The notes beneath the pieces are model-generated. The model did not search any database. It was not told where the DNA came from and saw only the letters and a list, made by a program, of their open reading frames with translations. A stretch of 40,977 nucleotides of DNA from Candidatus Amesbacteria bacterium (GTDB lineage Bacteria; Patescibacteriota; Microgenomatia; CAZETR01; Amesbacteraceae), in NCBI GenBank assembly GCA_963736875.1, contig CAVTQH010000002.1:400663-441639 (forward strand). The letters run 5' to 3'. Positions 17,659-37,486 of this stretch are shown in pieces. Position 1 is the stretch's first letter. Every line of letters begins with the position of its first letter. A program made the position numbers and the translations under genes.

Positions 17659-19279
17659 ATGGGCTTAATTTTAAGTCTTCTTCTTGGCCTTTCGCTTGTC
17701 ATCCGCGGCTTTTCAGTCAGTTCCCTGCCTCCGGAACTTTTTGGTGATGAAATTGATGTCGGGTATCAGGCTTATTCTCTCTTAAAGACAGGAAAGGATC
17801 TTTACGGTCAGCTTTTTCCGACATATATCCATTCACTTTCTGAATGGCGGACACCCCTTCTGATGTACTATACGGTCCCGGCCATTGCCTTGTTAGGTAA
17901 CAGCGAATTGGGAGTCAGGATGCCGGAAGTAGTTTTGGGTGCTCTGTCTCCGGTAATTCTTTTTCTTTTGGTTTACCAATTATCCAAATCCAAAAAGCTT
18001 GGTCTCCTGTCTTCTCTTGTTCTGGTTCTGATGCCCTGGCACATCCTGTATTCCCGCGCCGCTTTCGAGGCCGTTTTACTGCTGGACTTTGTAATGCTGG
18101 GTACATTGCTTCTTTTCAGACGTAACTACATACTGTCAGCCGTCTTTTTTGCCTTGACCTTCTATATATACAGTACTGCCATTGTTTTTACTCCTCTTTG
18201 GATATTTGCGCTTTTCTCTTATTCAGAGACCCAGATTCAGACTTATGCCGGTACTGGTTTTTTCCCTGCTTCTAATTCCTTTTATTCTGACTTTGTTTTT
18301 CGGCAAAGGAGCGGAGAGATTCGGCAAGGTGGGTTTATTTAACAATCAGGAGATTATCGACAATGTGATAGTCACCAGGAATGAAAGCAATTCTCCTCTG
18401 GAGCGGATATTTGCCAATCGGCCGGCATACATCACCCGCAAGATTTTCAATAACTATCTTTCCGCTTTTTCTCCGGAGTTTCTTTTTATCCGCGGTGATA
18501 TTACTGCCCGCCATAGCCTGCAGTACATGGGTCAGCTTCTGCCTGTTTGGGCTCCTTTCCTGGTATTGGGGTTAATTTATTTAATTAAACAAAAAGCCCG
18601 GATATGGCTGATATGGCTGTTACTGGCTCCCATTCCGGCTGCCCTGACGTATGACGGGGCATATCACGCCACCCGCTTGTTTATGATGATTCCTCCCTTG
18701 GCAGTTGCCGTCGGCGGAGGCATTTTATGGATTTTACAGCTCCTGCCGAAAAAAATTGCCGTCTTTACCTATTTTGTGGTTTGGATGGTGATTGCTTTTC
18801 AGTTTATTGACGCCGGTAATTATTACATTTTTCATTATCCTAAAATAACCTGGCGCTGGTGGCATGTGGGTTTCAAAACGGCCATAGAGGAGATTGTCAG
18901 ATTATCCCCAGACTACTCTCAGGTATTTATCAATAACACTTACGAACCGTCCCTGATTCGTTTCCTGTTTTACTCATCTTATCCGCCATCCCAATTTCAG
19001 AAGAATTTTACGCTCGATCAGCCGAAAGCGGACATTTCACCCAATTACTACGGTTTCTTTTTAGATCCGAAATACTTCTTCGGCACCTTTACTTTTCCGC
19101 CCAATAAATCCTTACCTGATGTTATTAAATCTGAGAATTTGTATCTGGTCAGCCAGCGGGATGATATTCCGGGAAACTGGGATTGGCGCACCACTGCCCC
19201 GGGGGGTGTCAAAGTGTTGTTTACTTCCACAAATCCGTTGGGTGACCCGGTCTTTTATCTGATTACCAAATCCGAATGA
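17659..19279 (+). CDS. ArnT/PMT-family glycosyltransferase, one frameshift
   Basis: FGDEIDVGYQAYSLLKTGKD, PWHILYSRAAFE, then ORF 18182..19279 with NYLSAFSPEFLF, HATR and YEPSLIRFLFY. Confidence 0.85.
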
Positions 19280-20551
19280 GACAGCTGGTTTTTTTACTGT
19301 TACTGGGACTTATCCTCAGGCTTGTCCTGAGCACTTCGATTTATAGCGGAGATGTTAATAATCACGTCGGGTGGGCAAAAAGCATTTTAGAAGAGGGGAG
19401 CAGGGGAGCTTATGACCGGAAGTATTCAGGTATTCTTCAGCCCACCTATCCGCCGCTGGCTCTTTATTCTTTTGTCACTTCTTACTGGCTTTACGGGCAA
19501 ACATATTCACTGGCAGAAACACTCAACCGCTCATTTGCCGAATTTCCTTCAAAAGTCATCTGGTTTCTGGAGGATCAGGATACCATGCCCGCTTTTCACA
19601 AAATTATTTCCATGATATCGGACCTGGGGATTGCGGTATTAATTTACGGTTTGTCCAGGCGGTTGTTCAAAGCCTCATCCAGAGCGGCATATATTGCAGC
19701 CGCCGTATATATATTCAATCCGGCCGTCTGGTACAACAGCAGCCTCTGGGGACAGCTGGAATCCCCGCCGATTTTCTGGATTTTGCTTTCCCTTTGGCTG
19801 TTTATAACAAAACGTCCGTACCTAGGATTTATTTCCATGAGCCTTGGCGCTTCTTTTTAAACAATCTTCCCTGATTTTTATCCCGGCATTAACCATATTT
19901 GCAGTCAGCCGGGCGGGAATTAAAAAGACGATTATGGGATTTTTACTTGCCGCGGCTGTTTTCTACGTTTCATATCTGCCTTTTTCGGAAAGTACCAATC
20001 CCCTTTGGCCTTTTCAGGTTTATCTGCACCGGCTGGAGGTAGGTTCGGGATCGGATTATATTTCCGATCATGCCTTCAATCTTTGGGCTCTCTATACCCG
20101 GCTGGAAAAGATTCCCGACTCGATAATTGTCTTTTCCGGTTTACCGGCAGCTCAGGTCGGGAAGATCGCCTTTATCGGGGTAGCTCTCATCTACCTGTTA
20201 CGCTATCTGTTAAGCCTTAAAAGCCGCCACGTCATTTATGTCCTGGGTTTGACTTCATTTGCCGCCTTTATGCTTTTGACCCGGATGCACGAAAGATATC
20301 TGGGACCGGTTATTCCTTTTATGGCAATCACGGCAGCAGCCAAAAAACAGCTTTGGCCGATTTATTTCCTGGTATCGCTGGGCCACGTCATAAATATGTA
20401 TCATCTCTGGTGGTTTCCCGATATCTCTCAGATTATTCCCCTCATCTCCGCCTGGCCCACAATAGTTTTTGTGATTATGTTATTTATTATTTCCTGGCTT
20501 TCCTGGACCGCAGTTTTTGCCGATGAAACCCGCCAGTCTCAACCAGCTTAA
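19276..20551 (+). CDS. GT-C membrane glycosyltransferase (GT87/ALG6-like), one frameshift
   Basis: GDVNNH..W, YPPL, K......D, FNP, WGQ, FKQ, AFNLW and MHERY. ORFs 19276..19860 and 19844..20551. Confidence 0.78.
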
Positions 20552-21734
20552 ATCGCTTTTAATTCCGGCCATTGTCTTACGCCTGCTGTTTTCCGCTCTG
20601 TTTTTTCACCCGGATATTAAAAGCCAGAACTTTCATGCTCAGTATTTATCACGGGGGATAATTAATATTTACGATTTTATCGACAAAAATAAAAGCTCCC
20701 TGCCATATACCGACACGTTTAATTACCCTCCCCTGACTTATTACTTTTTGGGCAGCTGGAATTTTATTGCCGGCAGGATTTTAGGACCTGATCTGAGTCA
20801 CTGGCTGAATGACTGGGGTCCCGGGGGTTACTCCAATCCCGGAATGTTTGAGTTTATGCTGCTTCTGAAATTCCCCTATTTATTGTTTGATCTGGCTATT
20901 GGTTTACTTCTGATGCAGGTAAGCCGCAGATTTCTGGCCTTGTGGCTTTTTAATCCCCTTTCACTGTATGCGATTTATATGATAGGCCAATTCGATATTA
21001 TTCCGGCGGCTTTAACGGTAGCAGCGCTGCTTTTAACCCGTCAAAACAAACTTACTACCGCTGTCATTCTTCTTGGTTTGGGAGCAGCCCTTAAAACCTA
21101 TCCATTACTTTTGGTCCCGTTTGTTCTGATTAGGGCATCCGGATACAAACAGGTGATAGTAGCGGTTTTGGCGTTTCTTGCGGCTTTCATCCTGCCCTTT
21201 TTACCTGTAATTAATTCTTCTGCTTTTCGTTATTCCATGTCCCATTCCAATCTGATGCAGGGGATTTTTTACGCCAACATCGGAGTCAGTGCCACTCAAA
21301 ATATTCCCCTTTATGTATTGATCTGGGGTCTGGTTTTCTGGCTGTCCTGGAAAAGACGTAAAAATACTGATTTATTGCCGGAATTTTTTACACTTACATT
21401 TACAGTGACTTTAATTTCTCACTTTCACGCCCAATGGCTGGTGTGGAGTTTGCCGTTTCTGATTTTGGTATTGGCAAAAAACATCCGGCTCTGGCCGGTA
21501 GTCGCCGCTGTTACCGCAGGCTTTTTCGGTACGGTCTGGCTTATCCCGGATCAATTTGTTTTTCTGGGATTATTTTCCCCCGTCAATCCCCAGGCACTAA
21601 TTTTTCCCTCAATTTACGAACTGGTCAAACCTATGGTTTCGCCGGAATTTATTCAGAGTATGTTTCATACGCTCCTGGCAGCATCCGGAGCCTGGTTAAT
21701 TTTTACGGTTTGGAAATCTTATGAAACTGAATAA
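20523..21734 (+). CDS. GT-C membrane glycosyltransferase (GT87/PIG-M-like), HPD type
   Basis: HPD, FNYPPLTY, LKFPYLLFD, WLFNP, GQFDI, KTYP and HFHAQW. Confidence 0.72.
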   Translation: MKPASLNQLKSLLIPAIVLRLLFSALFFHPDIKSQNFHAQYLSRGIINIYDFIDKNKSSLPYTDTFNYPPLTYYFLGSWNFIAGRILGPDLSHWLNDWGPGGYSNPGMFEFMLLLKFPYLLFDLAIGLLLMQVSRRFLALWLFNPLSLYAIYMIGQFDIIPAALTVAALLLTRQNKLTTAVILLGLGAALKTYPLLLVPFVLIRASGYKQVIVAVLAFLAAFILPFLPVINSSAFRYSMSHSNLMQGIFYANIGVSATQNIPLYVLIWGLVFWLSWKRRKNTDLLPEFFTLTFTVTLISHFHAQWLVWSLPFLILVLAKNIRLWPVVAAVTAGFFGTVWLIPDQFVFLGLFSPVNPQALIFPSIYELVKPMVSPEFIQSMFHTLLAASGAWLIFTVWKSYETE

Positions 21735-22338
21735 ATATTGGCTTATGACTATTGCCTATTGCCTGGTGCCTATAGTCTTTGCCTTAGGTCTTAGCCTTTT
21801 GGTCCGCCGCCTGCCTGATACCGGTCAGTCGCAGGTCGAAAAAGAAATCTGGGTTTATTCCGGGCATCCTGTTTCCCAAGATTATTACCCCGGCCCATGA
21901 CGGATTCAATGTAATCACCGTTTATCTGCGAAATATCGGCTTAAGAAATCAGGATCCGTTTCTTTTCCAAATATCTGACTCCGCGGGGGTGATCAGATCA
22001 ATTTCCCTGACCGGTTACAACATAGGGGACGGCGACAATGTCCGTTTCCAATTTCCACCGATAACAAATTCAAAGAATCAACCACTGACACATTGACATT
22101 TTCATCAGACTCTCCCCAGTCAACGGCTATCGGAGTCGGTTACAGCGACCAGGCTAAAAGCATTGCTTATCAAACTTTCTATTTTCCTACTTCCCGTATC
22201 TCCGTTCTCAAATCCGTAACTATGACATTCCTAACCAATTTATTTCATCTGAAATTTATCGTCATTTTCCTGACTTTGTATTATTTAGCCCAAATTTCGT
22301 GCACCTTCGGGTTCCGGTTCAGTGCCGGCGAAAAATAA
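21721..22338 (+). CDS. Hypothetical membrane-anchored protein (TM - extracellular domain - TM), frameshifted
   Basis: ATG 21721 MKLNKYWLMTIAYCLVPIVFALGLSLL..., shift near 21880 into ...NVITVYLRNIGLRNQDPFLF...GYNIGDGDNVRFQFPPI, then ORF 22093..22338. Confidence 0.55.
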
Positions 22339-22554
22339 TATCCTGGACAGGGTCAGGGCTTTTTCAGCTGACTTTTCCCGGCCTAAAGATCGGGTTTTTA
22401 TTATTGTCAATTCGTTACGAAAATCACTTTCCGGTTTTTTGTGCAATTTCAATATTCTGTCAATGAAAGTATCCGCTAAAGCATCCTGACCCCTGATGAT
22501 CCAGTTGGATATTCTCAGTAAGTCGGTGGATAAATCCAAACTGTCATTTTTCAT
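22285..22554 (-). CDS. Small helical hypothetical protein coupled to the DUF5674 gene
   Basis: 89 aa ORF whose start overlaps the end of the upstream DUF5674 gene. The 3' end is uncertain because it overlaps a convergent gene. Confidence 0.6.
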   Translation of the reverse strand: MKNDSLDLSTDLLRISNWIIRGQDALADTFIDRILKLHKKPESDFRNELTIIKTRSLGREKSAEKALTLSRILFFAGTEPEPEGARNLG

Positions 22555-22886
22555 ATCCGAATTTATTTTTAACCAGGTTAATGAAATCCTGCCTGGTTTG
22601 GGGATCTAATATTTCCTGGCTATTATTATTTTGCCCCGGCCGTAAATTAATCAATGCGAAGGTGTCTACTTGTCTGCTGGTTAAATCCACCCCGCCCCCC
22701 CAGATATCATTTTGGCTGCTGCCACTCTCTATTAGAAGTTTTTCCGCATCAGCGTGCCAAAGACCGCCGATAGCGACCGCTTTTTCCTTTAGGTCAGCCA
22801 CTACTTTCACAAAATCTCCGTAATCTTTCCTTAGCGGTTTGAAGATCAGTATCGGTTACTTTGTCTTTCACCATCACAATTCCCAT
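22544..22886 (-). CDS. DUF5674-family protein, one frameshift
   Basis: ATG 22886 MGIVMVKDKVTDTDLQTAKE, shift near 22826 into ...KVVAD.....AIGGLWHADAEKLLIESGSSQNDIWGG...LINLRPGQNNNSQEILDP..R. Confidence 0.78.
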
Positions 22887-22895
22887 ATGCAGACC

Positions 22896-22903
22896 ATTAT
22901 AAT
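22896..22903. promoter_or_regulatory. Palindromic ATTATAAT bidirectional -10
   Basis: TATAAT on + (22898-22903) 8 bp before ATG 22912, and TATAAT on - (22896-22901) 9 bp before ATG 22886. Confidence 0.65.
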
Positions 22904-22911
22904 CAATCTAC

Positions 22912-24526
22912 ATGCGAAACGGAAAATTATGGATTCTTGGTATCATCGTGATCTTGGCAGCAGGGCTCAGGCTGATAGGGTTGGACAAATACCCTGCCGG
23001 ATTTACTCCCGATGAAGCAGCCTTCGGCTACAACGCTTATTCGCTTTTAAAAACCGGTCATGACGAGTGGGGGATACCTTTTTGGCAGCTTCCATTTACC
23101 AACCTGCGTTCTTTCGGAGATTATAAAATGCCGCTGTATGCTTTTTTGACAGTTCCTTCAGTAACTTTATTTGGACTTAATGAAATTGCTGTTCGTCTTC
23201 CCAATGCAATTTTGGGAATCCTGGCTGTAGTTGTGATTTATTTATTCGGTAGAAAGTTAACCGGAAATAAAAATACCGCGCAAATTGCAGCTCTGATGCT
23301 CGCAATTTCTCCCTGGCATATGCCTCTTTCCCGCGGCGCTTTTGAAGCCAATCTGATTACATTTTTCCTTCCTTTGGGTATATATCTGTATCTTCAGAAA
23401 AAATACCGGTTATCAGTTAATTATTTTTTCACTGTCTCTGTATTCATATCATTCATCCCGGATCATTGCACCGCTGGCTCTGATCGGTTTGTTAATTGTC
23501 TATAAACCTGATCTGAAAAAACTATTTTCGTCGGCTTTATTACTGTTATTGTTTATCCCGGCAGTCTACTCACTGGTTTTTTCCAATGCCCGGGCAGCTG
23601 ACGTTTCGATTTTTCACTCCGACGACAATTGGGCTGCCATGGCCACCGGCCGGTTGAACCTGATCAGCTCCGGCACGCACCCGCTTATCGCCAGGTTGTT
23701 TATCAATAAAATCACTCATACCGGTCTGGTATTTTTTGATAATTTCAAGTCCTATTTCTCATATAAATTTCTTTTCTCCTCCGGTCCGGCAGAGGCAACA
23801 TACGGAATGCTGCCGGGGGTAGGTGTTTTGTATCTGATTCAACTTCCGTTTTTACTGATCTTCGGTTATCAATTAATTACTTCCCGTAATAAAAACTACT
23901 GCTATTTACTGTTATTACTTCTTCTTTCTCCGATTGCTGCCGCTCTGGCCAAAGGTCCGGGTCTGGCGGGAAACCGCGCCGCTTTCATGGTCATCCCCCT
24001 GACCCTGATGTCTGCCATCGGATTTGGTTTTTTAGCCAAAAAAGCAGGTAAATTGTTTTCCGTATTACTTTTACTATTGCTTTTAATATCCGCCGGCTCA
24101 TATCTCATAACCTATATCTTCAAATCTCCGGTCGTTCATGCGCACTCCATGGGTTACGGTTTCAGGCAGATGGCTCAGTATTTATCTGAAAATGAAAGTG
24201 GGTTTTCTCAAATCAGAATCAGCCGTTCACTGTCCGAACCCCATATTTACCTGGCTTTGTATCAAAAAACGGATCCCCGGGTGTATCAGACAGCTGCAAT
24301 ATCCTGGGCGGATTTTGAGAAAAAGGGATTTCGGTTTTTGGACCAGTATGATGGTTATACATTGGGAAAATACCGTTTTGGTGATCTGAATTACGAACGG
24401 TATGACCCTGGTAACATCTTATACGTCGGCCACCCCACCGATTTTCCATCCGAAACCAGAGTCAAAATAATCTCCCTCTTTCCGGATACCTCCCCGGCAA
24501 TTGTTTCTTATTCACCCTCCGACTAA
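22912..24526 (+). CDS. ArnT/PMT-family glycosyltransferase, one frameshift
   Basis: TPDEAAFGYNAYSLLKTGHDEWG, FGDYKMPLY, SPWHMPLSRGAFE. Second half has EPHIYLALY...DP..YQ. Confidence 0.87.
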
Positions 24527-24535
24527 AATACTCTC

Positions 24536-24955
24536 ATGGATCAAAAGACCCTGATTCTGGCAATATTGAGTCTGATCGGTTGGGGAGTCGGATCGTTTAT
24601 CGCCAAGCTGGCTACTAATCGGATCGGAGAAAAAACCGTATTTTGGGATTTGGCAGGGTATGTACCCATGGTAATCATCTACTGCCTGTTTATTTTCCGG
24701 TCAAAAGAACTATTTTCGGCTGACAAGAACGGGATTATCTTGGGTTTGATCGCCGGTTTACTCGGATCTATAGGGGTAATATCATTTTATATTTTATTGA
24801 CCAGAAAAGATGCTTCATCAGCGGTACCTATGACAGCGCTATATCCTATGTTAACGGCAATTTTAGCCATAATATTTTTAAAGGAGTCATTAACTCTGGT
24901 AAAAGCGGTGGGAATTGTCCTGTCAGTTGTTGCACTGGTGTTACTTAGCCTCTAA
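24536..24955 (+). CDS. Half-size EamA/DMT-family membrane protein
   Basis: 139 aa, ~5 TM helices, WG....AK, ASSAVPMTALYP, IFLKESLTLVK..G. TAAAAT (24524-24529) lies 6 bp upstream. Confidence 0.85.
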   Translation: MDQKTLILAILSLIGWGVGSFIAKLATNRIGEKTVFWDLAGYVPMVIIYCLFIFRSKELFSADKNGIILGLIAGLLGSIGVISFYILLTRKDASSAVPMTALYPMLTAILAIIFLKESLTLVKAVGIVLSVVALVLLSL

Positions 24956-25005
24956 AGGCATATATAGTTAAACACGGAAAAGGGGATTGTTATGGCTGAT
25001 TTTGG
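24932..25005 (+). repeat. Direct repeat copy 1 (~74 bp)
   Basis: GCACTGGTGTTACTTAGCCTCTAAAGGC (28 bp identical to 26604-26631), followed by a diverged copy ending TGGCTGATTTTGG. Confidence 0.92.
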
Positions 25006-26577
25006 TTATATACAGTTTTTTTTGTCAAAAGCCTGTCTATATTGCAGAAGAAACGAACCGATATTTTCTTCCATAATTACAGATGAAAAGTAGTTTTCTG
25101 TTTTAATATCTTCTAAAGAAAGTTTTTCAGGTATTCCTCTCATTGGCTCGCGAATATAAAAGCGGATACATGTTAATCCGTTTCCGGGTACGGGAAATAT
25201 ACCCGGGTATCCTAAAACGTTACCGGTTTCAAGAAAAGGCATATACCCATATTTTTTATAACCGTATTGATTGAATAAATAAGCCCAAACTGTTTGTACC
25301 AAATAAGGCATACCTGTAACTCTAAAAGTGAATTGATTACCGTCTGCTTGTTTGTACATTCTATTAATTATTTCAATCTCATCAGAGAGTCTCATGTAAG
25401 GTTGTGCTTTGATTCCCACATTTAAACCATTTATGTTGTTGGTTAAGATTAAGTTTAAGTTACTTATTAATATTAAAATTAGTAATAATGTACAAAGTAA
25501 TATCGATTTCTTTGATATATTTTCAAGCAATACACTAATTCCTAAAATTAACCCTAGCCCAATTCCTACATTCATTTGATACATGTTGTATCCGCCGGTA
25601 AATAACATTAATGATCCTGAAAGAATCCAAATAATTATCACCAATACCGATTTACTTTTTTCTCTGATAGCCTTAAATATTAAAAGTATTATTGTCCCGA
25701 ATGTAAAAACACAGGAAGTTAAAGATTTTACGGTAAAAGAATATATGTTGTCATGGAATATTAGCATTAAGTATTTTAGATAGTTGGAATATTTATTTTC
25801 TCCCGCATCAAGAACATGGAATCCGGAAAAAATTAAATTAAATCCGTTCTTTAGATTTGTGAAGTTATACATCAATTCTCCGATAATAAAACTTGAGGAA
25901 ATTAAAAGGAAAATGCATGAGGCAATCAACCAATGAATTGGTTTAAGAACTCTGAGGTTTTTTCTGAACATAAATAGAAGAAGTAAGCTTAAAGGGATTG
26001 TATAAATCGAATATAGTTCGAATTGAACAGATGAACTTACTCCGATTGACATCAACAAAATTCCTATAAAGGATTTTTTAGGAAATTTATGAATAACCGA
26101 TACTCCCAGGAAAATAAGTAACCATGACAGAATTGCCAGAGAAGGATTCCCGGTAAAAATGGCATATTGTGTTTCCTCAAAAGAAAAAGCAAAAATCAAC
26201 CCACAGATTATTCCGGTCCTGCGATTAAATAAAACTTTTCCAAGATAATATATAAGAAAAACCCCAAGTGAATTAAAAACCCTGAAAAATATTGATACTA
26301 TCAGTGGACTTCCCTGTGCTATTAAGTATAAAGGACCCAAAAAATACCAAAATAGTACTCCGTGATGTAAACCCGTATTACCGGCAGTCGGCCCAATAAT
26401 TTTTAAATCCCTTTCCAGATATATGTTTTGACTGATAAAAGCATCCCTTGCCTCATCGAATCCAAAATATGCAGATTCACTTAAATAGAGAACACGTATT
26501 AACAATGCAACTGTGAATATTAGCAAACATATGGCCAGATCTATTTTGTATTTATCAATATACCTAATTATTCTCAT
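25006..26577 (-). CDS. AT-rich ArnT/PMT_2-like glycosyltransferase, apparently inserted
   Basis: Intact 523 aa with FGFDEARD, LKIIGP and NPS motifs and many TM helices. Opposite strand to its neighbours and visibly AT-richer. TAAAAT lies 8 bp upstream (26586-26591). Confidence 0.82.
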   Translation of the reverse strand: MRIIRYIDKYKIDLAICLLIFTVALLIRVLYLSESAYFGFDEARDAFISQNIYLERDLKIIGPTAGNTGLHHGVLFWYFLGPLYLIAQGSPLIVSIFFRVFNSLGVFLIYYLGKVLFNRRTGIICGLIFAFSFEETQYAIFTGNPSLAILSWLLIFLGVSVIHKFPKKSFIGILLMSIGVSSSVQFELYSIYTIPLSLLLLFMFRKNLRVLKPIHWLIASCIFLLISSSFIIGELMYNFTNLKNGFNLIFSGFHVLDAGENKYSNYLKYLMLIFHDNIYSFTVKSLTSCVFTFGTIILLIFKAIREKSKSVLVIIIWILSGSLMLFTGGYNMYQMNVGIGLGLILGISVLLENISKKSILLCTLLLILILISNLNLILTNNINGLNVGIKAQPYMRLSDEIEIINRMYKQADGNQFTFRVTGMPYLVQTVWAYLFNQYGYKKYGYMPFLETGNVLGYPGIFPVPGNGLTCIRFYIREPMRGIPEKLSLEDIKTENYFSSVIMEENIGSFLLQYRQAFDKKNCI

Positions 26578-26603
26578 TCCAGGTTATTTTACATAAATGT
26601 GTA

Positions 26604-26676
26604 GCACTGGTGTTACTTAGCCTCTAAAGGCTATAATAGTTGGGCATGAAAAGGGGACTGCTGTGGCTGATTTTGG
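26604..26676 (+). repeat. Direct repeat copy 2 (~73 bp), containing TATAAT and the ATG of the next gene
   Basis: GCACTGGTGTTACTTAGCCTCTAAAGGC-TATAAT-AGTTGGGC-ATGAAAAGGGGACTGCTGTGGCTGATTTTGG. Confidence 0.92.
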
Positions 26677-28270
26677 GCTTGCTTCTGATTCCTTCTTTTT
26701 CTCTCATGCTCCGGCCGGGTATTTTTACCATGCATGACCCCCATCTTTTCCGTATTTTTGAATACAGTAAATGTCTTAATGACGGGATATTTCCCCTGCC
26801 GATGGGCACCTGATTCCGGCAAGGGTTACGGCGAACCCCTGTTTAACTTCTACGCTCAGGCTCCGTATTGGATTACTGCCTTTTTTCACCTGATACGTTT
26901 CTCCCTGATAGACTCCATCAAAGCGGCTTTTATCCTCTCTTTGCTAGCCTCAGCCGGTGCCATGTATCTGTACGCCCGGCGTTATTGGGGTAACCTGGGC
27001 GGTCTGGTTTCGGCAGTATTTTATATCTACGCTCCTTACAGGGCGGTAGACGTCTGGGTCAGGGGTTCCCTGCCCGAAAGCCTGGCATTTGTCCTGTATC
27101 CGCTGATTCTGTATTTTCTTGATTTGTTTTTCGAGAATCGTAAACCGAAATATTTGTTATATTTTTCCCTCTCACTTGCCTTGCTGATCAATATTCACAA
27201 CCTTTCATTTTTAATGTTTGCACCTTTTTTGGGAGTTTACTGGTTAGTAAAAAGCTGGTTGCGGAAACAATTCTCCAGTTTCTGGCCAATGATTCTGGCC
27301 GGAATCTTTGCTCTGCTGCTCTCCGCGTTTTACCTGTTACCGGTAATCTTTGAAAGTTCACTCATTACTCTCAATCAGACAGTCCAGGGTTACTATGATT
27401 TTCATGTCCATTTCACCACCCTGCGTGAATTGTTTATTTCCCGGTATTGGGGTTACGGGGCATCTCTTTGGGCTCAAAAGTTTTTAAGTGTTTCAATCGG
27501 CCAGATTCACTGGATTGTTCCCCTGTTATTACTGTCAGCCGCTTTAATAAAACGGAAATTTAACCTCAGCACTTTTTACTTATTACTGTTTTCTACTTCT
27601 GGGAGTTTCCGCCCTGTTTCTAACCCACGGAAAATCCTCATTTATTTGGAATCTGATTCCGGTTATGAAATATATTCAATTTCCCTGGCGTTTTTTAACC
27701 ATCGCTGTCTTTTTCCTGTCACTGGCATCAGGTTACTTTGTTAAATTATTCCCCAAAAGATTAATTCCTGTCTTACTGATACTGTTGCTTTTTACTAATT
27801 ATTCATTTTTCCGCCCTGATATCTGGCGAAACATTTCCGACCGGGAACAGTATTCCGGCGCTCTCTGGGACGAAGCCCGCAGTTCATCACTGACCGATTT
27901 TTGGCCAAAGACTGCCGTAGTACCGACTGATTTTGCCCCCTCCGGGATTCAATTATTATCCGGAGATGTTCAGGTTAACCAGTTTAGTACAAAAAGTCAT
28001 TCCGCCTATCTTGATGTTACGGCTAATTCCATATCCCGTATAACCTTGCCGATTGTGTACTTCCCCGGCTGGGAACTTAAAGTTGATAATCGGGTTAAAC
28101 TACTGACCCCTTCAGCCGATTCGGGCTATATCACTTTCAGCCTGCCCCCAGGCAGGCATGAAATTAATTTGAGTTTTAAAAACACCTGGCCGCGGACAGC
28201 AGGCAATCTGATTAGCCTGTTCGCACTGCTTTCCATACCCGTATGGTTTCTCAAAAAAAAGCTTGGTTAA
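26646..28270 (+). CDS. PTPS-related / YfhO-like GT-C membrane protein, 2 frameshifts
   Basis: ATG 26646 MKRGLLWLIL...MHDPHLFRIFE, then RWAPD.G.GYGEPLFNFY, YAPYRAVDVWVRG, QFPWRFL, YFPGW and LPPGRH. Confidence 0.82.
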
Positions 28271-29829
28271 TCCTGATAATCATTATTTTATTCTCCGGCA
28301 TAATCCGGCTGATAAATCTAAATGCTTTACCCCTGAATTGGGATGAAGTCAGCCACGGCTACAACGCCTACAGCCTCTTACTTACCGGCCGCGACCAGTG
28401 GAATCAGGCCTTTCCCCTTCTTAATTTCCGGGCTTACGGTGATTACCCCACTACTCTCAATTTATACATGTCCGTCCTGCCGTTAAAAGTTTTCGGTATG
28501 ACTGATTTTGCTCTCCGGCTGCCCCACATTCTGATCGGGATACTCTCCGTTGTTCTGGCTTACATAGCAGCTTTCAGGTGGCAGAAAAATCGCTTACTGG
28601 CCTTGTTTGCCGCCTTCTTTGTAGCTTTGGAACCCTGGACATTTTTTCCCTCCAGGGCGGTCTTTCAGTCCAACTGGACGGTGTTCCTGCTCTTTTTGGG
28701 CCTGGGACTTTATTTTTCAAAAAAGACAATTCCTGCGGTTTTAATCTGGGGTCTGTCGCTTTTTGCATATCACAATACCAGAATATTCATTCCTCTCCTG
28801 CTTGTTTTTTTACTCTTTAAAAAGTCCGTCAGGATAAACAAAAAGGTCCTGGGGACTGTAATTTCGGTAATGGTTTTGGGAATTGGTATTTTATGGTTTT
28901 CCCAGGCCCGGGCCCGGGGTAATTGGGTAGGCATTCTGGATTCCGGAGCTATTGCTTATATCGAACAGCAGAGAAACATTTCCCGTCTTCCGCGTCCTGC
29001 TTACCCGTCTTCTGTTTAACCGTCCGGTATTCATGCTGACCAATGCGGTTAAAAATTTCCTGGGTTATTACTCACCGCGTTATTTATTTTTCAGCGGCGG
29101 TACCCAATACCAGTTTTCCCAACCCGGCTTCGGCGTGTTGAACCCTATACTTCTGCCGTTTTTCTATTGGGGAATATTTCAGCTGTACCGTCGCCGCCAA
29201 TGGTTTGTTTTATTATGGCTTTTTCTCTCCCCGATACCCGCAGCCATTACCCGTGATCAGTATGCTGTGATCCGTGCCACCACCATGATTCCGGCTGTTT
29301 ATCTTTCCGTATCATTGGGATTGATATCCTTCTTAAATTTCTTAAAAACCCGCCGGTTGTCTTTAGTATTTCCGATTTTGGTTTTGATTTTATGGTTATT
29401 TTCGCCTGCATTTACGCTTATTCCTATTTCGTAAAATATCCCGTCCGGTACGCTTCCTCCTGGCAGTACGGCAACCGGCAAATGGTGAATTTTATCAAAT
29501 CAGACTTTTCAAAATACGATCAAATATTTATTACCAAAAGATACGGTGAGCCGCATGAATATATTCTCTGGTACTGGCCTTGGGATCCGAAAGCTCTTCA
29601 AAATGACCCGTCCCTTAAATGGGATTTCCATGACAACTGGTATTGGATAAATGCCCTGTCCCGCCTGCGTTTTGTTAATGATTGGGAAATTAAGGATATG
29701 GCCAAAGTTTTACCCCGCGGAAATAAATACCTGATCATCAGTTCAGGCGACAGCCGGCCGGACGGAGCCAAAGTGGGCCAGATTAATTATCCGGACGGCA
29801 GCACCGTCTACGTTATGACAGCCATATGA
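28243..29829 (+). CDS. ArnT/PMT-family glycosyltransferase, 2 frameshifts
   Basis: NWDEVSHGYNAYSLLLTGRDQW, YGDY, EPWTFFPSR, then YSPRYLF, then WQYG, YGEPHEYILWY and YPDG. Confidence 0.85.
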
Positions 29830-31448
29830 ATAAAAAATGGTTGATATTGGCAATTCTGATATTGGGTTTAATCCTAAGAGTTGTTAAGTTAGATTCCCGT
29901 CCGTTTGGTTTCACCTGGGATGAAGCGGCTTTGGGATACAACGCTTATTCGCTTCAAAAAACCGGCAGGGATGAGTATGGTCAATTAGCACCGCTGGTGT
30001 TTAAATCCTTCGGCGACTACAAACCCGGTTTGTATATCTATTTTACCGTCCCGGTTATTAAAGCACTGGGTCTGAATGAATTTTCCACCCGCCTGCCCTC
30101 TGCCATATTCGGTACACTGCTTCTTCCGGTCATCTTTGTATTAACCGGACTGGCTTTTCCCGGTAAATCAAGAAACTTAAGCTTTCTTGCCATGGCGGTA
30201 GCCGCTTTTAATCCCTGGCTTGTACATTTCTCCCGCGGAGCCTGGGAGGCAAACCTCAGTCTGCTTTTAACCGCTCTGGGCGTGGTTTTGTTTATAAAAA
30301 GCGTTAAAAACCAGTCAGTCACAGGCTTTTTATTGTCTTCCGGATTCTTTGGTTTAACACTTCTAACTTATCAGTCGGCAAAACTGTTTACCCCGCTTCT
30401 AATGCTGTCATTATTTATTATTTATTATAGAAAAATCAGGCTTTCAAAGCTTTTACCTTCACTGTTACCATTCCTGTTACTAATACTACCCGTCGTTATC
30501 AATTTTGCCGGCCAATCCGGACGGCTGAAGGTTTTTAATGTTTTCAGCTACACCCGGACCGCTGAATATGTCAAAGAGATTTTTCGCCAGGATGGAACTT
30601 CCGGTAAAAATCTTATTTACTATATATATCATTCAGAATTACTTGATCAGACCAAGGGCGTTTTACAGCGGTATTTAAATCATTTCTCACCCCGGTTTCT
30701 GTTTACGGAAGGGGATTGGACTTCTTTGCGTCACACCACCTACCGTCAGGGATATTTTACTTTAGCAGAAATTATTCCGCTGGTATTGGGAATGTTTTGG
30801 TTTTTAAAGAATTTAAAAAGCCGCGGAGCCAGGGTATTAATAATCTGGATGATTCTGGCTCCCCTTCCAGCGGCTTTCTCGAGGGACCTGGTTTCCGGCG
30901 TCCGGTCCCTGGCATTATCCGTACCTCTGACGATAATTATCGCTGCCGGTATATCTCAAATAACAAAGCACAAGCTTCATCTGGTCATGTTTATTTCCGT
31001 CTGGGTGATTCTTTTCGCTTTGTATCTGGAAATGTACTACTTTCACAGCCAGTTTTATTCAGCCGGTCAGTGGGTTTCCCCGTATAAAAGCGCGTTTCAG
31101 AAAGTGAAACAATACGGGAGTGATTATTCCCGGATATATTTCACCGACAAACTCGGCCAGCCCTACATTTTTGCCCTGTTTTATCTGCAGGTTGATCCGG
31201 CAGATTATCAGAAGCAGGCTGTATTGCAGGCCAATCAAAGCGGTGATGTGGGTCAGGTTACCGGTTTTGATAAGTATGTTTTCCGGCCGATTTTCTGGCC
31301 CGAGCTTAGGGGAAAAACTAATTCCCTGTTCATCGGGGACGAATACGAACTTCCGGAAAAAGACTTAAATATTCCGGGTTTGATTAAAATCGGCGATATT
31401 TTCTATCCTGACGGCAAGTTAGCTCTCAAACTGGTGGGCATTCCATGA
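29826..31448 (+). CDS. ArnT/PMT-family glycosyltransferase
   Basis: Intact 540 aa: TWDEAALGYNAYSLQKTGRDEYG, FGDYKPGLY, NPWLVHFSRGAWE, GQPYIFALFY, YPDG. Confidence 0.9.
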   Translation: MNKKWLILAILILGLILRVVKLDSRPFGFTWDEAALGYNAYSLQKTGRDEYGQLAPLVFKSFGDYKPGLYIYFTVPVIKALGLNEFSTRLPSAIFGTLLLPVIFVLTGLAFPGKSRNLSFLAMAVAAFNPWLVHFSRGAWEANLSLLLTALGVVLFIKSVKNQSVTGFLLSSGFFGLTLLTYQSAKLFTPLLMLSLFIIYYRKIRLSKLLPSLLPFLLLILPVVINFAGQSGRLKVFNVFSYTRTAEYVKEIFRQDGTSGKNLIYYIYHSELLDQTKGVLQRYLNHFSPRFLFTEGDWTSLRHTTYRQGYFTLAEIIPLVLGMFWFLKNLKSRGARVLIIWMILAPLPAAFSRDLVSGVRSLALSVPLTIIIAAGISQITKHKLHLVMFISVWVILFALYLEMYYFHSQFYSAGQWVSPYKSAFQKVKQYGSDYSRIYFTDKLGQPYIFALFYLQVDPADYQKQAVLQANQSGDVGQVTGFDKYVFRPIFWPELRGKTNSLFIGDEYELPEKDLNIPGLIKIGDIFYPDGKLALKLVGIP

Positions 31449-33064
31449 AAAAATATTTAATTCCGGTTTTAATTCTGATATTTGCCGCATTATTAAGATT
31501 GTGGGCGATATCCGATTTTCCTGCCGGTTTGAATGCTGACGAAGCGGCCTTGGGATACAATGCTTATTCCCTGCTTTTGACGGGGCGTGATGAACACGGC
31601 CACCTGATGCCGGTAAATCTTGAATCATTCGGTGATTTCAAGCCCGCTCTTTATACCTATATACTGGTTCCCCTGGTCAAAGTCCTTGGTCTGACAGAGT
31701 TGGCTGTCCGCCTGCCGTCGGCAATATTCGGGATAATTGCCGTTTTGGCAATTTACTGTCTTTCCGGTCTGATTTTCAAGAATCCTCAAATCAAAATAAT
31801 TTCCTCTCTGGCACTGGCAGTCTCACCCTGGCATCTGCATTTTTCCCGCGGGGCCTGGGAAGTCAACGTCGCCACTACTCTGATCCTTATCGGGATCATC
31901 CTTTTTCTCAAATGGACTAAAGACAGAAAATTTTCCACATTTGTCTTCAGTCTGATGCCTTTTATTCTGTCCATGTATACATATCAGTCAGCCCGGGTTT
32001 TGGCGCCGGCTTTGGGTGCGGGATTAGTAATCCTTTACAGACGTCACCTGCTTGGAAATATCAGGCAGACTTTATGGGGATTGGTGCTTCTGCTGCTTTT
32101 TCTTATCCCTCTGGGGTTTTCAATATTTACGTCTTCCGCCGCGTCACGTTTATCCGGAGTGGGATTGCTGGCTGATGAGGGACCTTTGAATTTTGTTAAG
32201 GAACTGAGGGGTCAGCATTCCGCTGCCACCTCAATTATCGGGCGCATATTCCATAATCGCCCGGTGATATACACCCTGCAATTTGTTAAAAATTATCTTT
32301 CTCATTTTGACGGTAACTTTCTGTTTGTAAACGGCGACGAAATCCAAAGAAACCGGATTCCCGAAACCGGCCTTATGTATTTCACGGACTTTGTGTTGCT
32401 GATATTCGGATTAATTTATCTGCTGAACCATCACCAACCAAAAGCCAAAAACCTGATATTACTGTGGCTTATTATTGCCCCCCTGGCATCGGCTATGACA
32501 TTCCAGGTTCCCCACGCCCTCCGGGCCCAAAATATGATTATTCCCCTATCTCTTCTTCTGTCTGCGGGGATATATCAAATACTCCAAATATTCTACAAAT
32601 ATAAAATACTGTTATTGCTGTTACTACTGACTGCCTACGGATGGCAAATTACCCGTTATCTCCACGAGTATTATGTCCATTACCCCCAAACCTACCCGGC
32701 AGCCTGGGAATACGGATTTAAGGATTTGGTGGCCTATGTTACAGCCAACCAGGACCGGTACGAAAAAATCCTGGTCACGGATAAATACGACCAGCCGTAT
32801 ATTCTCTTTTTATTCTACAGCCGTTACAATCCGAAGTTGTTTCAGGGTAATCACGAGCTGACAGCCCGTGATCAGTACAATTTTTCAACCGTCAAAGAAT
32901 TTGATAAATACGTATTTACCGATACCGCCTGGGACAAGGTCAGGGATATCCACGGATCGTTAATTGCTGCCGCGGGGGAAGATATTCCGCCGGTAGGGGT
33001 TAATATTGTCAAAACAATTAATTTTCCAAACGACCAACCGGCGTTTAAAATAGTCTCAAATTAA
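31445..33064 (+). CDS. ArnT/PMT-family glycosyltransferase
   Basis: Intact 539 aa: NADEAALGYNAYSLLLTGRDEHG, FGDFKPALY, SPWHLHFSRGAWE, PHALR, WEYG, DQPYILFLFY. Confidence 0.9.
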   Translation: MKKYLIPVLILIFAALLRLWAISDFPAGLNADEAALGYNAYSLLLTGRDEHGHLMPVNLESFGDFKPALYTYILVPLVKVLGLTELAVRLPSAIFGIIAVLAIYCLSGLIFKNPQIKIISSLALAVSPWHLHFSRGAWEVNVATTLILIGIILFLKWTKDRKFSTFVFSLMPFILSMYTYQSARVLAPALGAGLVILYRRHLLGNIRQTLWGLVLLLLFLIPLGFSIFTSSAASRLSGVGLLADEGPLNFVKELRGQHSAATSIIGRIFHNRPVIYTLQFVKNYLSHFDGNFLFVNGDEIQRNRIPETGLMYFTDFVLLIFGLIYLLNHHQPKAKNLILLWLIIAPLASAMTFQVPHALRAQNMIIPLSLLLSAGIYQILQIFYKYKILLLLLLLTAYGWQITRYLHEYYVHYPQTYPAAWEYGFKDLVAYVTANQDRYEKILVTDKYDQPYILFLFYSRYNPKLFQGNHELTARDQYNFSTVKEFDKYVFTDTAWDKVRDIHGSLIAAAGEDIPPVGVNIVKTINFPNDQPAFKIVSN

Positions 33065-33067
33065 GAA

Positions 33068-33850
33068 ATGGGATCAAAAATCAACCTATCAGTTGTTCTG
33101 GCCACCTTCAATGAAGAAGCCAATCTCGGCAAATGTCTGGAGTCGGTAAAAGATATTGCCGATGAAATCGTGGTGGTAGACGGCCAATCAACGGACAAAA
33201 CAGTCGAGATCGCCAAAACCTTTAAAGCCGGAATAATTTCCACTACCAACAAACCCAACTTTCATATCAATAAAAATATGGCTATCGATGCGGCAAAAGG
33301 GGAGTGGATACTCCAGCTGGACGCTGATGAGGTGGTTTCACCAAAGTTATCTTCAGAGATATCCGAAGTAATTTCCACATCTCCCCCCGAAGCCGGCTTT
33401 TGGATTCCCCGCCTGAATTATTTTCTAAACCGTCCCCTGACCAAAGGCGGTCAGTATCCCGACTATACTCTCCGGTTGTACCGTAACGGCCTGGGTCGTC
33501 TGCCCGGTAAAGATGTGCATGAGCAGGCGGTGGTTAAAGGCAAAGCAGGTTATCTGAAGAATAATCTGCTTCATTTCAATACCCCGGATTTTGAAAATTA
33601 TCTCCTGCGGCATAACCGCTACACTTCGCTTCTGGCAGGGGAGCTCGGAGAGAAAAAAGTTCAGTTGGATTTTACATCGGCAATGGATTACCTTTTTTTC
33701 AAACCTTTTAAAGAATTTTTTAATATTTATGTAATTCACCGGGGATATGTAGACGGTTTTCCGGGGTTTGTATTTGCCCTTTTCTCGGGCTTGCGTTTCG
33801 GGGAGGCATACATTAAATATTGGCAGATTACCAAATATCCGGAAAAATGA
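33068..33850 (+). CDS. GT2 glycosyltransferase (KdtX-like)
   Basis: LSVVLATFNEE, VDGQSTDKT, GEWILQLDADE, YPDYTLRLY, VHE, DGFPG. Confidence 0.9.
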   Translation: MGSKINLSVVLATFNEEANLGKCLESVKDIADEIVVVDGQSTDKTVEIAKTFKAGIISTTNKPNFHINKNMAIDAAKGEWILQLDADEVVSPKLSSEISEVISTSPPEAGFWIPRLNYFLNRPLTKGGQYPDYTLRLYRNGLGRLPGKDVHEQAVVKGKAGYLKNNLLHFNTPDFENYLLRHNRYTSLLAGELGEKKVQLDFTSAMDYLFFKPFKEFFNIYVIHRGYVDGFPGFVFALFSGLRFGEAYIKYWQITKYPEK

Positions 33851-34912
33851 TTAAAGTCGGTCTTGTCACCACCCCCTTATCTTCCGGCCATGCAGCCAGG
33901 GGAGTGGGTTTCTATACCAAAAACCTCCTTTCCGGGCTTAAGTTACTGGCCTCGGGAAGTAACTTTGAAATAGAGGAAATTAAAAGCCCAACAATAACCG
34001 GAAACTATGACATTATTCACTATCCGTTTTTTGATCTTTTCTTTCCTTCCCTGCCGCTTTTCAAACCCACCAGAACCGTAGTTACAATTCATGATGTTAT
34101 TCCCCTGGAGTTTCCGCACTCACTTTCCGCCGGGAGTAAAAGGCCGGATCAATTTAATCCGGCAAAAAATCTCTCTTCTCAACGTTAACCGGGTAATTAC
34201 CGATTCTTACGCTTCGGTTAAAGGCATCCGCAGGCACCTGCGGGTTCCCCATGCAAAAATTAAATTGGTATATCTGGCACCGGCGTCTCATTTCCGGCCC
34301 ATACAGGATAATCGCCTTCTTGCGCAAGTCAAAAAAAAGTACCATCTCCCCGATAAATTTGTGCTGTATGTAGGAGACATCAACTGGAACAAAAATCTTC
34401 CGGGACTGGCCAAGGCTTGCCAAAAGCTTAAAATCCCCCTGGTGATTGTAGGTAAACAGGCTATGGAGATTGACGCTCTGGATACTGCCCATCCCGAGTT
34501 ATCTCACCTTGTATCTCTGAAACCGTATTTTCAAAACGCCAAATCGCCGGTGCTCCGGCTGGGTTTTATCTCAGACGAGGAACTTGTAGCCGTATATAAT
34601 TTGGCTTCCGTTTACTGTCAGCCGTCTTTTGCGGAAGGTTTCGGTCTGCCTGTTTTGGAGGCATTAGCCTGCGGTACCCCGGTAGCCTGCAGTGATACCC
34701 ATTCCCTGCCGGAAATTGCCGAAGAGGCGGCAGTCTATTTCGATCCGGAAAAAACGGATTCGATAACTAAAGCATTAAATAACATCATTACTGATTCCCG
34801 GTTAAGGTCTGACTTAATTGCCAAAGGTCTGCTCCAGGCCAAAAAGTTTTCCTGGGAGAAAACGGTTCGTGATACACTGGACGTTTACCGGGAAGTTAAA
34901 AACTTATCATGA
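33847..34912 (+). CDS. GT4 glycosyltransferase (MtfB-like), one frameshift
   Basis: ATG 33847, RGVGFY, VVTIHDVIPL, shift near 34120, then LYVG, KN, PSFAEGFGLPVLEALACG and FSWEK. Confidence 0.9.
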
Positions 34913-36043: not shown

Positions 36044-37485
36044 ATGACGGGATTAAAACTTCTGTTAGCCGGTATTATCTTTTCTTTTTTCTTTTCCTGC
36101 CTTCTTTTTCCGGTTTTTATACGAATGACGATTTTTTTCATCTGAAAATCAGTCAGGCAAATTCGTTGTCAGACTTTATCGGGTTTTTTAATCTGAGAAA
36201 ATCAGAGAGCGGTTACGGCTGGTATCGTCCTCGTCCCATGAGTACGCAGGTTTTTTATTTTTTAAATGCAAAGCTCTTTAATTCAAATCCCATCCCGGCC
36301 AGAATATTCATATTCACGGTCTTTGTGCTGATCACTGCCTGGTTTTTTTGTTAACGGGTCTGCTGACAGGATCAAATCTGATTTCCGGATTGGCAGCTTT
36401 CATTTACGCGGTGTCCGTTACCCATTTCGGTCAGTTATATTTTTTCGGTAATCAGGAAATTATTTCCGGATTCTTTTACCTTTTGTCGGTTTTTTTCTGG
36501 TGCAAATATTTTCTGACAGCCGGAAAAGTCTGGTACTCGGAGCTTCGTCACTTTTATGCTTGCTTTGGGATCCAAAGAAACTGCAGTCACCCTGCCATTT
36601 GTTTTTTTGTTGCTGACAGGTTTTTTCAGATTCGACAAATAAAGAAAAATTCAAACCCGGATCATTATCGGTCATTGTAGCCCCTTTGTGCTTTTGGCCG
36701 GAATTTATACTTGGCATCATTATGCCTATTACGGTCTGAACCAGGGAGATTCGTATATTTTTGATCTTTCACCCAGGATTGTTAACACACTGACCTGGTA
36801 CGGTCTTTGGTCGTTGGGACTGCCGGAAATGCTGGTGGATTTTATCGGTCCGGGTCTGAAAATAAATCCTAATCTGATACGTTTTTGGGGGAAGGAAATC
36901 ATCGCGATCGTATTAGTTTTCGGTGCTCTGTTACTGCAAATAATATATTTTATGGCAAAAAAACCCGGGTTGAAAATATTCAGGACTCTGGTTTTTTCAT
37001 TTCTTTGGTTCGGTTTTACCCTTGGACCGATTTTACTTCTTCCCTGGCATAAGTTTTCGTTTTATTTAACCATACCCATGTTTTCCGTCGCGTTGTTTCT
37101 GGCAGCTCTTATCGGACAGTTTCCAAAACTTCAGATTTTACTTTTTTTGGGAACCCTTTTATTAATTACTGTACTGACGTTAAATCTGACTGTCCGTACG
37201 AACTGGATAAGCAAGGGACTGGTTACGGCTAAGAACGTCGATACCTATCTGCGAAATATTTATCCCGCAACCCCGACCAAAACAACAATTGTATTCTATG
37301 ATACCCCAGTGGATAAACAGCTTCCCTGGTCGCCGGCAGGAGTATTAAAAGACGTGTTGTCTGATAACAATTACTTTAGAAGTTTATGCCGTCAAGATCT
37401 TACGGCCGAGTATGTGACCGAAAAACCCGATAAAATCATTCCTGGCCGGGTGTTAATTGAAGCCAGGCAGTTTCTGGGGTACTAA
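36044..37485 (+). CDS. GT-C-like polytopic membrane protein (DD...YRP type), several frameshifts
   Basis: ATG 36044, then NDDFFHL, WYRP and SKE motifs across ORFs 36166, 36348 and 36688, with a soluble C-terminal domain. Confidence 0.65.
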
Positions 37486-37486
37486 T

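Follow-up and report, generated by a model that had tools for sequence, protein, structure and literature searches.

The DNA analysed here, referred to as the window, is a stretch of 40,977 nucleotides from Candidatus Amesbacteria bacterium and forms the final 41 kb of contig C2 of a metagenome-type assembly (G000; 997,761 bases in 5 contigs, completeness 91%, contamination 0.7%). Throughout its length the window is a glycosylation cluster, in which Pfam searches identified GT2 and GT4 genes, many GT-C glycosyltransferase genes, a Polysacc_synt flippase and a PIG-V-like gene. The subject of this report is a single open reading frame (ORF) at 25006–26577, named INS, which lies within an array of GT-C genes (GTa to GTf). 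The array genes around INS are all encoded on the plus strand; INS is on the minus strand. It is intact and encodes 523 amino acids (aa), with a GC content of 0.314; its description rests on composition, homologues and an AlphaFold2 model. To its left lie GTb (22912–24526, plus strand), a conserved array GT-C gene recognised by synteny and by a PMT / PMT_2 match on its N-terminal piece, and an intact, single-domain EamA-family membrane protein of 139 aa (24536–24955, plus strand; Pfam EamA, E 8.8e-17). To its right lies GTc (26646–28270, plus strand), a conserved PTPS_related / YfhO-type GT-C gene identified by Pfam and by orthologues in related genomes. INS is enclosed by two direct copies of the junction between EamA and GTc.

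The left copy (24932–25005, plus strand) comprises the true 3′ end and stop codon of EamA, followed by a decayed version of the GTc promoter and of the first 31 bases of GTc. The right copy (26604–26676, plus strand) comprises a redundant EamA 3′ end, followed by a working-looking junction with TATAAT and the GTc ATG. Alignment of the two segments with MAFFT and with local methods showed that their first 28 bases (24932–24959 and 26604–26631, plus strand) match exactly. Beyond this core, 46–47 alignment columns contained 7 substitutions and 3 single-base indels (ca. 80% identity). When one mismatch was allowed, the repeat reached 4 bases further left (24928 and 26600), giving 79 columns at 86% identity by blastn. 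A preliminary description of this DNA, made from the sequence alone, had proposed a repeat at these positions, and the alignments confirmed that it is real. At up to 3 mismatches, the 28-mer occurred twice in the window, against 0 expected from 100 shuffles, and no further copy of the repeat was found anywhere in the 997,761-base genome. The 28 identical bases span the last 7 EamA codons and the stop codon, which places an exact core at the 3′ end of the target gene. It is the EamA-end / promoter / next-gene-start junction that has been duplicated, over 74–78 bases of the target.

In the right copy, the redundant EamA end amounts to 24 bases plus the stop codon, TATAAT occupies 26632–26637 and the ATG of GTc is at 26646. 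At the corresponding places the left copy carries ATATAT and ACG, exactly as the preliminary description had read them, the ACG with an extra base. Six of the 7 substitutions are A/T in the left copy and G/C in the right one, and the GC content of the diverged part is 0.39 on the left versus 0.48 on the right. Because a related genome (G016) carries GCTATAATAG at the equivalent spot upstream of its own GTc, the right copy is taken to be the ancestral form. The coding differences between the copies number 3, all of them synonymous leucine changes. An argument from synonymous changes for a donor-derived left copy was set aside as uninformative: about half of the possible G/C-to-A/T transitions in these codons are synonymous (hand count, P about 0.125).

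The insert between the copies is small. The stop codon of INS (25006–25008) abuts the left copy, and the 26 bases upstream of its ATG (26578–26603, minus strand) contain a TAAAAT −10-like box (26591–26586) located 8 bases before the ATG; both edges were as first described. The sister gene of INS, found at locus L046, has CATAAT 7 bases before its ATG. A consensus scan for promoters and terminators called 12 sites against 9.3 expected, and neither the junction promoter nor the TAAAAT of INS was called. Directly outside the left edge of the repeat there is a TGT microhomology. No inverted repeats were found at the insert ends (25006 and 26603). A reading of the 28-mer as a Xer/dif site was dropped, as its two 11-base arms, compared by eye, are not inverted copies of each other.

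Composition and phylogeny show that INS is foreign and derives from outside this lineage. Its GC content falls in the lowest 0.3% of 1572-base windows of the genome, for which the mean is 0.456, and its GC1, GC2 and GC3 are 0.35, 0.31 and 0.28, respectively. This GC3 lies at the 1.4th percentile of 764 ORFs, and the other array ORFs range from 0.39 to 0.52. The difference in GC content between gene and flanks is −0.127 for INS versus −0.066 to +0.028 in all 49 homologue loci located in genome contigs, whose names include Collier-, Davies-, Woese-, Roizman-, Levyi- and Blackburnbacteria and ‘Patescibacteria group’. The best identity to INS in a set of 5.8 billion clustered proteins was 55%, and 73 proteins matched at E ≤ 1e-20. 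Among 61 related genomes, the top matches were 45% in G040, a member of another family, and 42% in G008, and in both genomes the orthologue sits among different neighbours. A 144-aa ORF beside the G040 orthologue was considered as an EamA homologue and was ruled out on comparison. The loci of the closest INS homologues had no neighbours in common with the window, and no INS relatives were found in viral contigs.

In a tree of 53 rows, from which 6 of 58 loci were left out because the match was under 400 residues, INS was sister to the L046 gene (55% identical) with a support of 100 in the Shimodaira–Hasegawa-like approximate likelihood ratio test (SH-aLRT). This pair fell inside a 23-row clade (SH-aLRT 100) that contained one same-family member only. 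Since the L046 gene (GC 0.32) matches its flanks of 0.32, the composition of INS is that of genomes in which its nearest kin are native. The view of INS as a single foreign gene, already put forward in the preliminary description, is thus borne out by a family synteny that lacks INS (see below), by its outlying GC and GC3, by a sister protein in a genome of 32% GC and by its placement in the tree. Many of the homologue loci L042–L089 bear titles such as ‘uncultured Gammaproteobacteria’ or ‘Pseudomonadales’, yet their proteins cluster tightly with those of the Candidate Phyla Radiation (CPR), and these labels look unreliable; two proteins from the same loci have identical counterparts in G008 and G040, both kin of G000.

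The function of INS was examined by profile searches and structure prediction. Its match to Pfam PMT_2 (PF13231) scored 23.3 bits, under the curated cut-off of 26.1, and the same family matched 10 of 11 aligned INS homologues (E ≤ 0.001). INS had no NCBIfam match, and a profile search gave no PDB sequence match. The AlphaFold2 model, built on 53 sequences, had a mean predicted local distance difference test score of 93.3 and a predicted template modelling score of 0.92. When this model was compared with the PDB using Foldseek, all 28 chains matched at E ≤ 0.001 were GT-C enzymes (AglB, PglB, ArnT, STT3, ALG12 and PMT), with template modelling scores of 0.58 / 0.56 for ArnT. The model combines a multi-helix membrane domain with a C-terminal soluble domain, as in the GT-C fold. 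An acidic motif, FDEARD, lies at residues 40–45 in the first outside loop and is presumably catalytic. Across the 53 sequences, D45 and R28 never vary, and D41, R44 and A43 show a conservation of at least 90%. On the strength of the predicted structure, we are confident that INS is a GT-C fold glycosyltransferase, in line with the AT-rich, opposite-strand GT-C gene of the preliminary description. INS is probably in use, because the ORF is intact and the conserved acidic loop motif has been kept.

The C-terminus of INS bears on how the insert was delimited. The protein stops 1 residue past a conserved cysteine, whereas all 10 homologues compared run on for 5–10 residues. INS therefore has its tail cut at the junction, and the left boundary of the insert falls inside the tail of the original gene. 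The ends of the insert look like an arbitrary break or a trimmed fragment, not like those of a cassette with defined sites. This argues against the minimal cassette that had been proposed at first.

Synteny was examined in 19-kb stretches from G004, G017, G016, G015, G007 and G001, taken from 24 genomes with a GTc orthologue and compared using window ORFs of at least 110 aa. Between GTa and the PIG-V-like gene, all six same-family genomes have an array collinear with that of the window. In five of them GTb lies directly upstream of GTc, at a distance of 0–30 bases. The stop codon of GTb and the start codon of GTc overlap in the sequence ATGA in G017, G015 and G001, and 25–30 bases with TATAAT separate the two genes in G004 and G016. 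In G007, other GT-C paralogues lie upstream of GTc. No homologue of EamA or INS was found between GTb and GTc in any of the six. EamA and INS (24527–26645) are thus additions in the lineage of G000, because the arrays of the six relatives lack both. EamA homologues are patchy, occurring in 9 of 41 genomes (best identity 55% in G010, 42% in G040), always in other contexts. Because the repeat includes the 3′ end of EamA, EamA already abutted GTc when INS arrived. In the ancestral order GTb was directly followed by GTc; EamA was inserted first and INS later, so that the stretch just upstream of GTc took two successive insertions. The empty site named in the preliminary description, with EamA joined directly to GTc, occurs in none of the six relatives.

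The same comparisons bear on the possibility that INS and EamA are ancestral members of the array that the examined relatives have lost. The patchy distribution of the INS orthogroup in the class (45% identity in G040, 42% in G008) is compatible with this idea. Losses would, however, be required in six genera, each leaving GTb cleanly abutting GTc, and the outlying composition of INS, the duplicated junction and the differing neighbours in G040 and G008 would be left without an explanation. Such a history was already disfavoured and is highly improbable.

Further material around the locus was searched for related junctions. The exact 28-mer had no match in metagenome contigs. A search with the GTc protein gave 13 loci, all at ≤ 49% identity, with no genus-level relative among them, and the related genomes compared likewise included no other member of the genus. 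Run X1 (0.06 of sampled words), mapped to 20000–32000 at 80% likeness, yielded the short contigs of a relative in 35 pieces, 9 of them at 95–99% identity, 8 at 90–95% and 18 under 90%. These pieces cover parts of array genes in 17 of 30 bins and leave 24010–26816 uncovered, and none of the contigs bridges that interval, giving no evidence either way on an empty site or on the insert in this relative.

Several observations on the neighbouring genes were made alongside. The edges of the EamA insertion (24527–24955) have in common only the 5-base CTAAA, which may be due to chance. By analogy with ArnE/ArnF and GtrA, an EamA-type protein of this size (139 aa) encoded next to GT-C genes could act as a subunit of a lipid-linked-sugar flippase. 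In G017 (contig C3; L037, 12583–14136), an opposite-strand GT-C gene lies between GTb and GT87; its GC resembles that of the host, and no repeat flanks it. In the window, the array gap between GT87 and GTb (21734–22912) contains small ORFs only, including a minus-strand DUF5674 gene (22544–22810), and three one-base omissions (21879, 22081 and 22087) distinguish the X1 relative in this gap.

Several of the conserved array genes appear broken. By comparison with intact ORFs in G004 and G017, eight frame changes were counted across six conserved array genes at 17659–34912: one each in GTa, the 459-aa gene (19276–20551), GTb and the GT4 gene, and two each in GTc and GTd. GTb is split into two frames (22912–23505 and 23489–24526), whereas its orthologues in G004 and G017 are single ORFs. 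GTc is read in three frames (26646–26813, 26734–27744 and 27665–28270), and its first frameshift is a surplus C in TTTCCCCTG (26792–26796), after about 50 codons. The GTc orthologues of all 24 same-family genomes searched (48–65% identity) are single open frames of 508–622 aa. The earlier statement that the insertion left both neighbours intact therefore stands for EamA and fails for GTc, with its two frameshifts. INS, EamA, GT87, GTe and GTf are whole. Short homopolymers occur in most of the frame-break zones of the array, and the breaks may reflect real decay into pseudogenes or local consensus errors. The X1 relative shows one-base omissions at 23417, in the break zone of GTb, and at 27594/27596, in that of GTc. 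More genes of the window appear to be split into adjacent overlapping ORFs, namely PMT_2 fragments (995–2571), an amine oxidase (37457–38757) and the Polysacc_synt flippase (38893–39812).

The frame breaks, together with the metagenome-type assembly in 5 contigs, could point to an assembly or mixed-population artefact, in which the insert, or a free 1672-base circle sharing the 28-mer, had been joined into the chromosome during assembly. However, assembly cannot give rise to two diverged versions of one 74-base stretch, and for a chimera both ends of the foreign piece would have to carry the 28-mer. In addition, the rest of the genome contains intact ORFs as long as 3258 aa. We consider an artefact very unlikely.

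The structure of the locus is tentatively attributed, at somewhat less than even confidence, to an illegitimate insertion with duplication of the target in situ, followed by decay of the left copy. A one-off event independent of any recombinase would have inserted a piece of DNA that had arbitrary ends and had probably entered via the ComEC competence channel; a ComEC-type competence domain and RecA are both encoded in the genome. The target would have been duplicated during repair, when a staggered break was filled in or when replication switched template at a microhomology of a few bases. The duplication would have left the EamA C-terminus and the GTc promoter whole, which may be why the insertion was tolerated. 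The redundant half of the left copy, comprising the promoter and gene start, would then have decayed, mainly through G/C-to-A/T transitions. The 28 bases would have been kept identical as useful in both copies, as EamA coding sequence on the left and as promoter-upstream sequence on the right. Illegitimate insertion needs no donor that already carried the junction, and it fits the arbitrary ends of the insert and the G/C-to-A/T decay of the left copy.

Several points weigh against this explanation. The differences between the copies are unevenly spread, with 0 in 28 bases versus 10 in 47 columns (Fisher P = 0.011). Because the copies began identical, simple decay should also have left differences in the right copy, where the 28 bases are redundant, and the model can explain the uneven spread only by putative selection acting on the 28 bases in each copy. 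No site was called by the consensus promoter scan at the 28-base promoter-upstream stretch, and the argument for selection on the GTc promoter is weakened because GTc is frameshifted. To our knowledge, a 74-base target duplication is far longer than any produced by bacterial break repair. If the left copy has decayed by ca. 15%–20%, the insertion would be old, yet the composition of INS is still donor-like. Moreover, both junctions are known from one assembly alone.

Insertion-duplication (Campbell-type) integration via a short homologous segment is used for mutagenesis in naturally transformable bacteria. As in such integration, INS lies between direct copies of a target segment, a dedicated recombinase is unnecessary, and loss by recombination between the copies would be possible. 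In the present case, a small circle carrying INS and a diverged (homeologous) copy of the junction would have entered by a single RecA crossover within the 28 bases, bringing in, along with the insert, the 46 AT-rich bases now found in the left copy. This event accounts for the contrast between the identical core and the diverged columns, for a left copy that differs almost only towards A/T, as the insert does, and for the undiluted donor-like composition of INS. The RecA that it needs is encoded in G000, and the direct repeats flanking INS are a duplicated target segment, as expected of such an event. The 28-base core is also near the minimal length reported for RecA-dependent recombination in Escherichia coli, as quoted in the available portion of Touzain et al. 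2010 (PMC2884548). On the other hand, the donor must already have held the EamA-end / GTc-start junction, which 0 of the 6 examined relatives has. Of the genomes with the two closest INS homologues, G061 has no EamA orthologue of the small type and G062 has only a distant form of 301 aa, and the repeat is absent from all 49 homologue loci. The homology of 74 bases (28 identical) is far shorter than the efficient lengths of laboratory segments, and no circular form and no junction-bearing donor was seen in the 49 homologue loci or when the 28-mer was compared with metagenome contigs. A crossover with a circle also merely shifts the origin of the structure one step back, and the cut C-terminal tail of INS is unexpected for a cycling cassette. 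Integration of this kind is rather unlikely, ranking second among the explanations considered.

A broader version of the same idea holds that INS and one junction copy form a recombinase-free cassette that cycles by RecA between a 1672-base circle and the chromosome and represents a general route in CPR bacteria. We regard this as improbable. If it were true, junction-carrying cassettes would let competent, transposon-poor CPR bacteria add and swap surface-glycosylation genes, and the tRNA-Phe-flanked gene and other repeat-flanked AT-rich islets of G000, described below, would be further cassette products. The preliminary description had similarly suggested that the repeat could be how the GT-C array grows; a comparable repeat-flanked low-GC insert was found in 0 of the 6 relatives' arrays, and that suggestion is not supported.

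An exact core at the 3′ end of a gene also raises the possibility of site-specific integration, in which the 28 bases would be an att core. The tyrosine recombinase using this core would have been supplied in trans, or by a larger island of which later deletions left just the one useful gene. Two tyrosine recombinases (PF00589) are encoded in other contigs of the genome (C4:188 kb and C3:55 kb), and no match to a serine recombinase (PF00239) was found in G000. Within the window, the 51 ORFs scanned contained no transposase or integrase family, in agreement with what had been noted initially. A similar arrangement occurs at C4:133717–134608 (L094, 2717–3608), where two copies of a repeat of ca. 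70 bases enclose a lone AT-rich ORF of 238 aa that matched nothing in Pfam or NCBIfam. This repeat consists of the 3′ half of tRNA-Phe and 32 bases with a promoter-like box, and its second copy is a decayed pseudo-tRNA end just before the start of the next gene. Neither in this islet nor in the other low-GC repeat-flanked islets of G000 was an integrase found. Against integration at an att site, the similarity at INS extends 46 bases past the core into the target promoter and the start of the next gene, which an unrelated attP would not produce. The insert is roomy enough for one gene only, and its end cuts the tail of INS. Furthermore, repeat-flanked islands are not a general habit of this genome. 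Site-specific integration is accordingly considered quite unlikely.

The frequency of such arrangements was assessed across the genome. Among 39 isolated direct-repeat pairs lying 300–10,000 bases apart, 4 flank DNA with a GC content at least 0.07 below that of its flanks (null 2.3%, P = 0.013). Only 5 of 44 AT-rich islands had boundary repeats above the 95th percentile of the null (P = 0.067), and INS was the strongest of these islands, with a boundary-repeat score of 97 versus 58 for the runner-up. The evidence for repeat-flanked AT-rich islands as a habit of G000 is too weak to call. On contig C2, three other islets of low GC content lie between direct repeats. A 29-base exact repeat at the 3′ end of RNase J surrounds a 95-aa ORF (163338–163897). 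A 36-base repeat surrounds three genes before recA (189387–191428), encoding an AadA-like nucleotidyltransferase, an alpha/beta hydrolase and a deoxyribosyltransferase-like protein. A 49-base repeat (80% identity) surrounds a 7.4-kb defence-like island with AAA_15 / AAA_21 ATPase, MazG-like and NERD genes (247925–255435).

The locus was also compared with known classes of mobile DNA. Target duplications of insertion sequences (IS) and transposons measure 2–15 bases. The INS locus resembles these in that the target is directly duplicated on both sides, but the insert is one ORF without a transposase or terminal inverted repeats, and the repeat of 74–78 bases is longer than an IS target duplication, as the preliminary description had pointed out. 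Islets inserted by tyrosine integrases, with attL and attR, likewise have an exact core at the 3′ end of a tRNA or protein gene, low-GC cargo and a restored target gene end. Unlike them, INS has no integrase in or near the insert among the window ORFs, its repeat extends into the downstream promoter and the next gene, and its single cargo gene has a cut end. Unlike an integron gene cassette, INS has no integrase, and its flanks are copies of the target junction, with no inverted repeat at the ends (Rfam and attC models were not run). A further resemblance is to variable segments and to homology-facilitated illegitimate recombination: Touzain et al. 2010 (PMC2884548) report small strain-specific segments without mobile-element genes, 10%–18% of them between direct repeats, which were attributed to illegitimate recombination and in which membrane-protein genes were over-represented. 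INS shares with these segments its small size, the lack of mobile-element genes, the direct-repeat flanks and a membrane-protein gene. In contrast, 66%–94% of the flanking repeats in that survey are < 30 bases, whereas here the repeat has 74–78 bases and duplicates a functional gene junction on either side of a complete foreign gene.

The genomes of Patescibacteria are tiny and poor in classical mobile elements; much gene exchange among these bacteria has nevertheless been reported (PMC12455944). In that text, most of the single-gene transfers detected in Patescibacteria are from Patescibacteria to Patescibacteria, and competence genes are proposed as the route. INS is similar in being a single gene with patescibacterial kin in a genome with a competence gene. 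The terms ‘direct repeat’ and ‘integrase’ are absent from the main text of PMC12455944 as available, and integration footprints are not described there. Physical footprints of integration are rarely seen in Patescibacteria, and the INS locus is unusually legible and clean: the empty state can be read from a conserved array, the composition of the inserted gene marks it unmistakably as foreign, and the duplicated target gives the site and the order of events. If circles or empty sites were shown, the locus would become a testable case of recombinase-free gene mobility; otherwise, it is a well-documented single event. A spot that was hit twice, in an array whose conserved members are breaking down, suggests that surface-glycan genes turn over by replacement.

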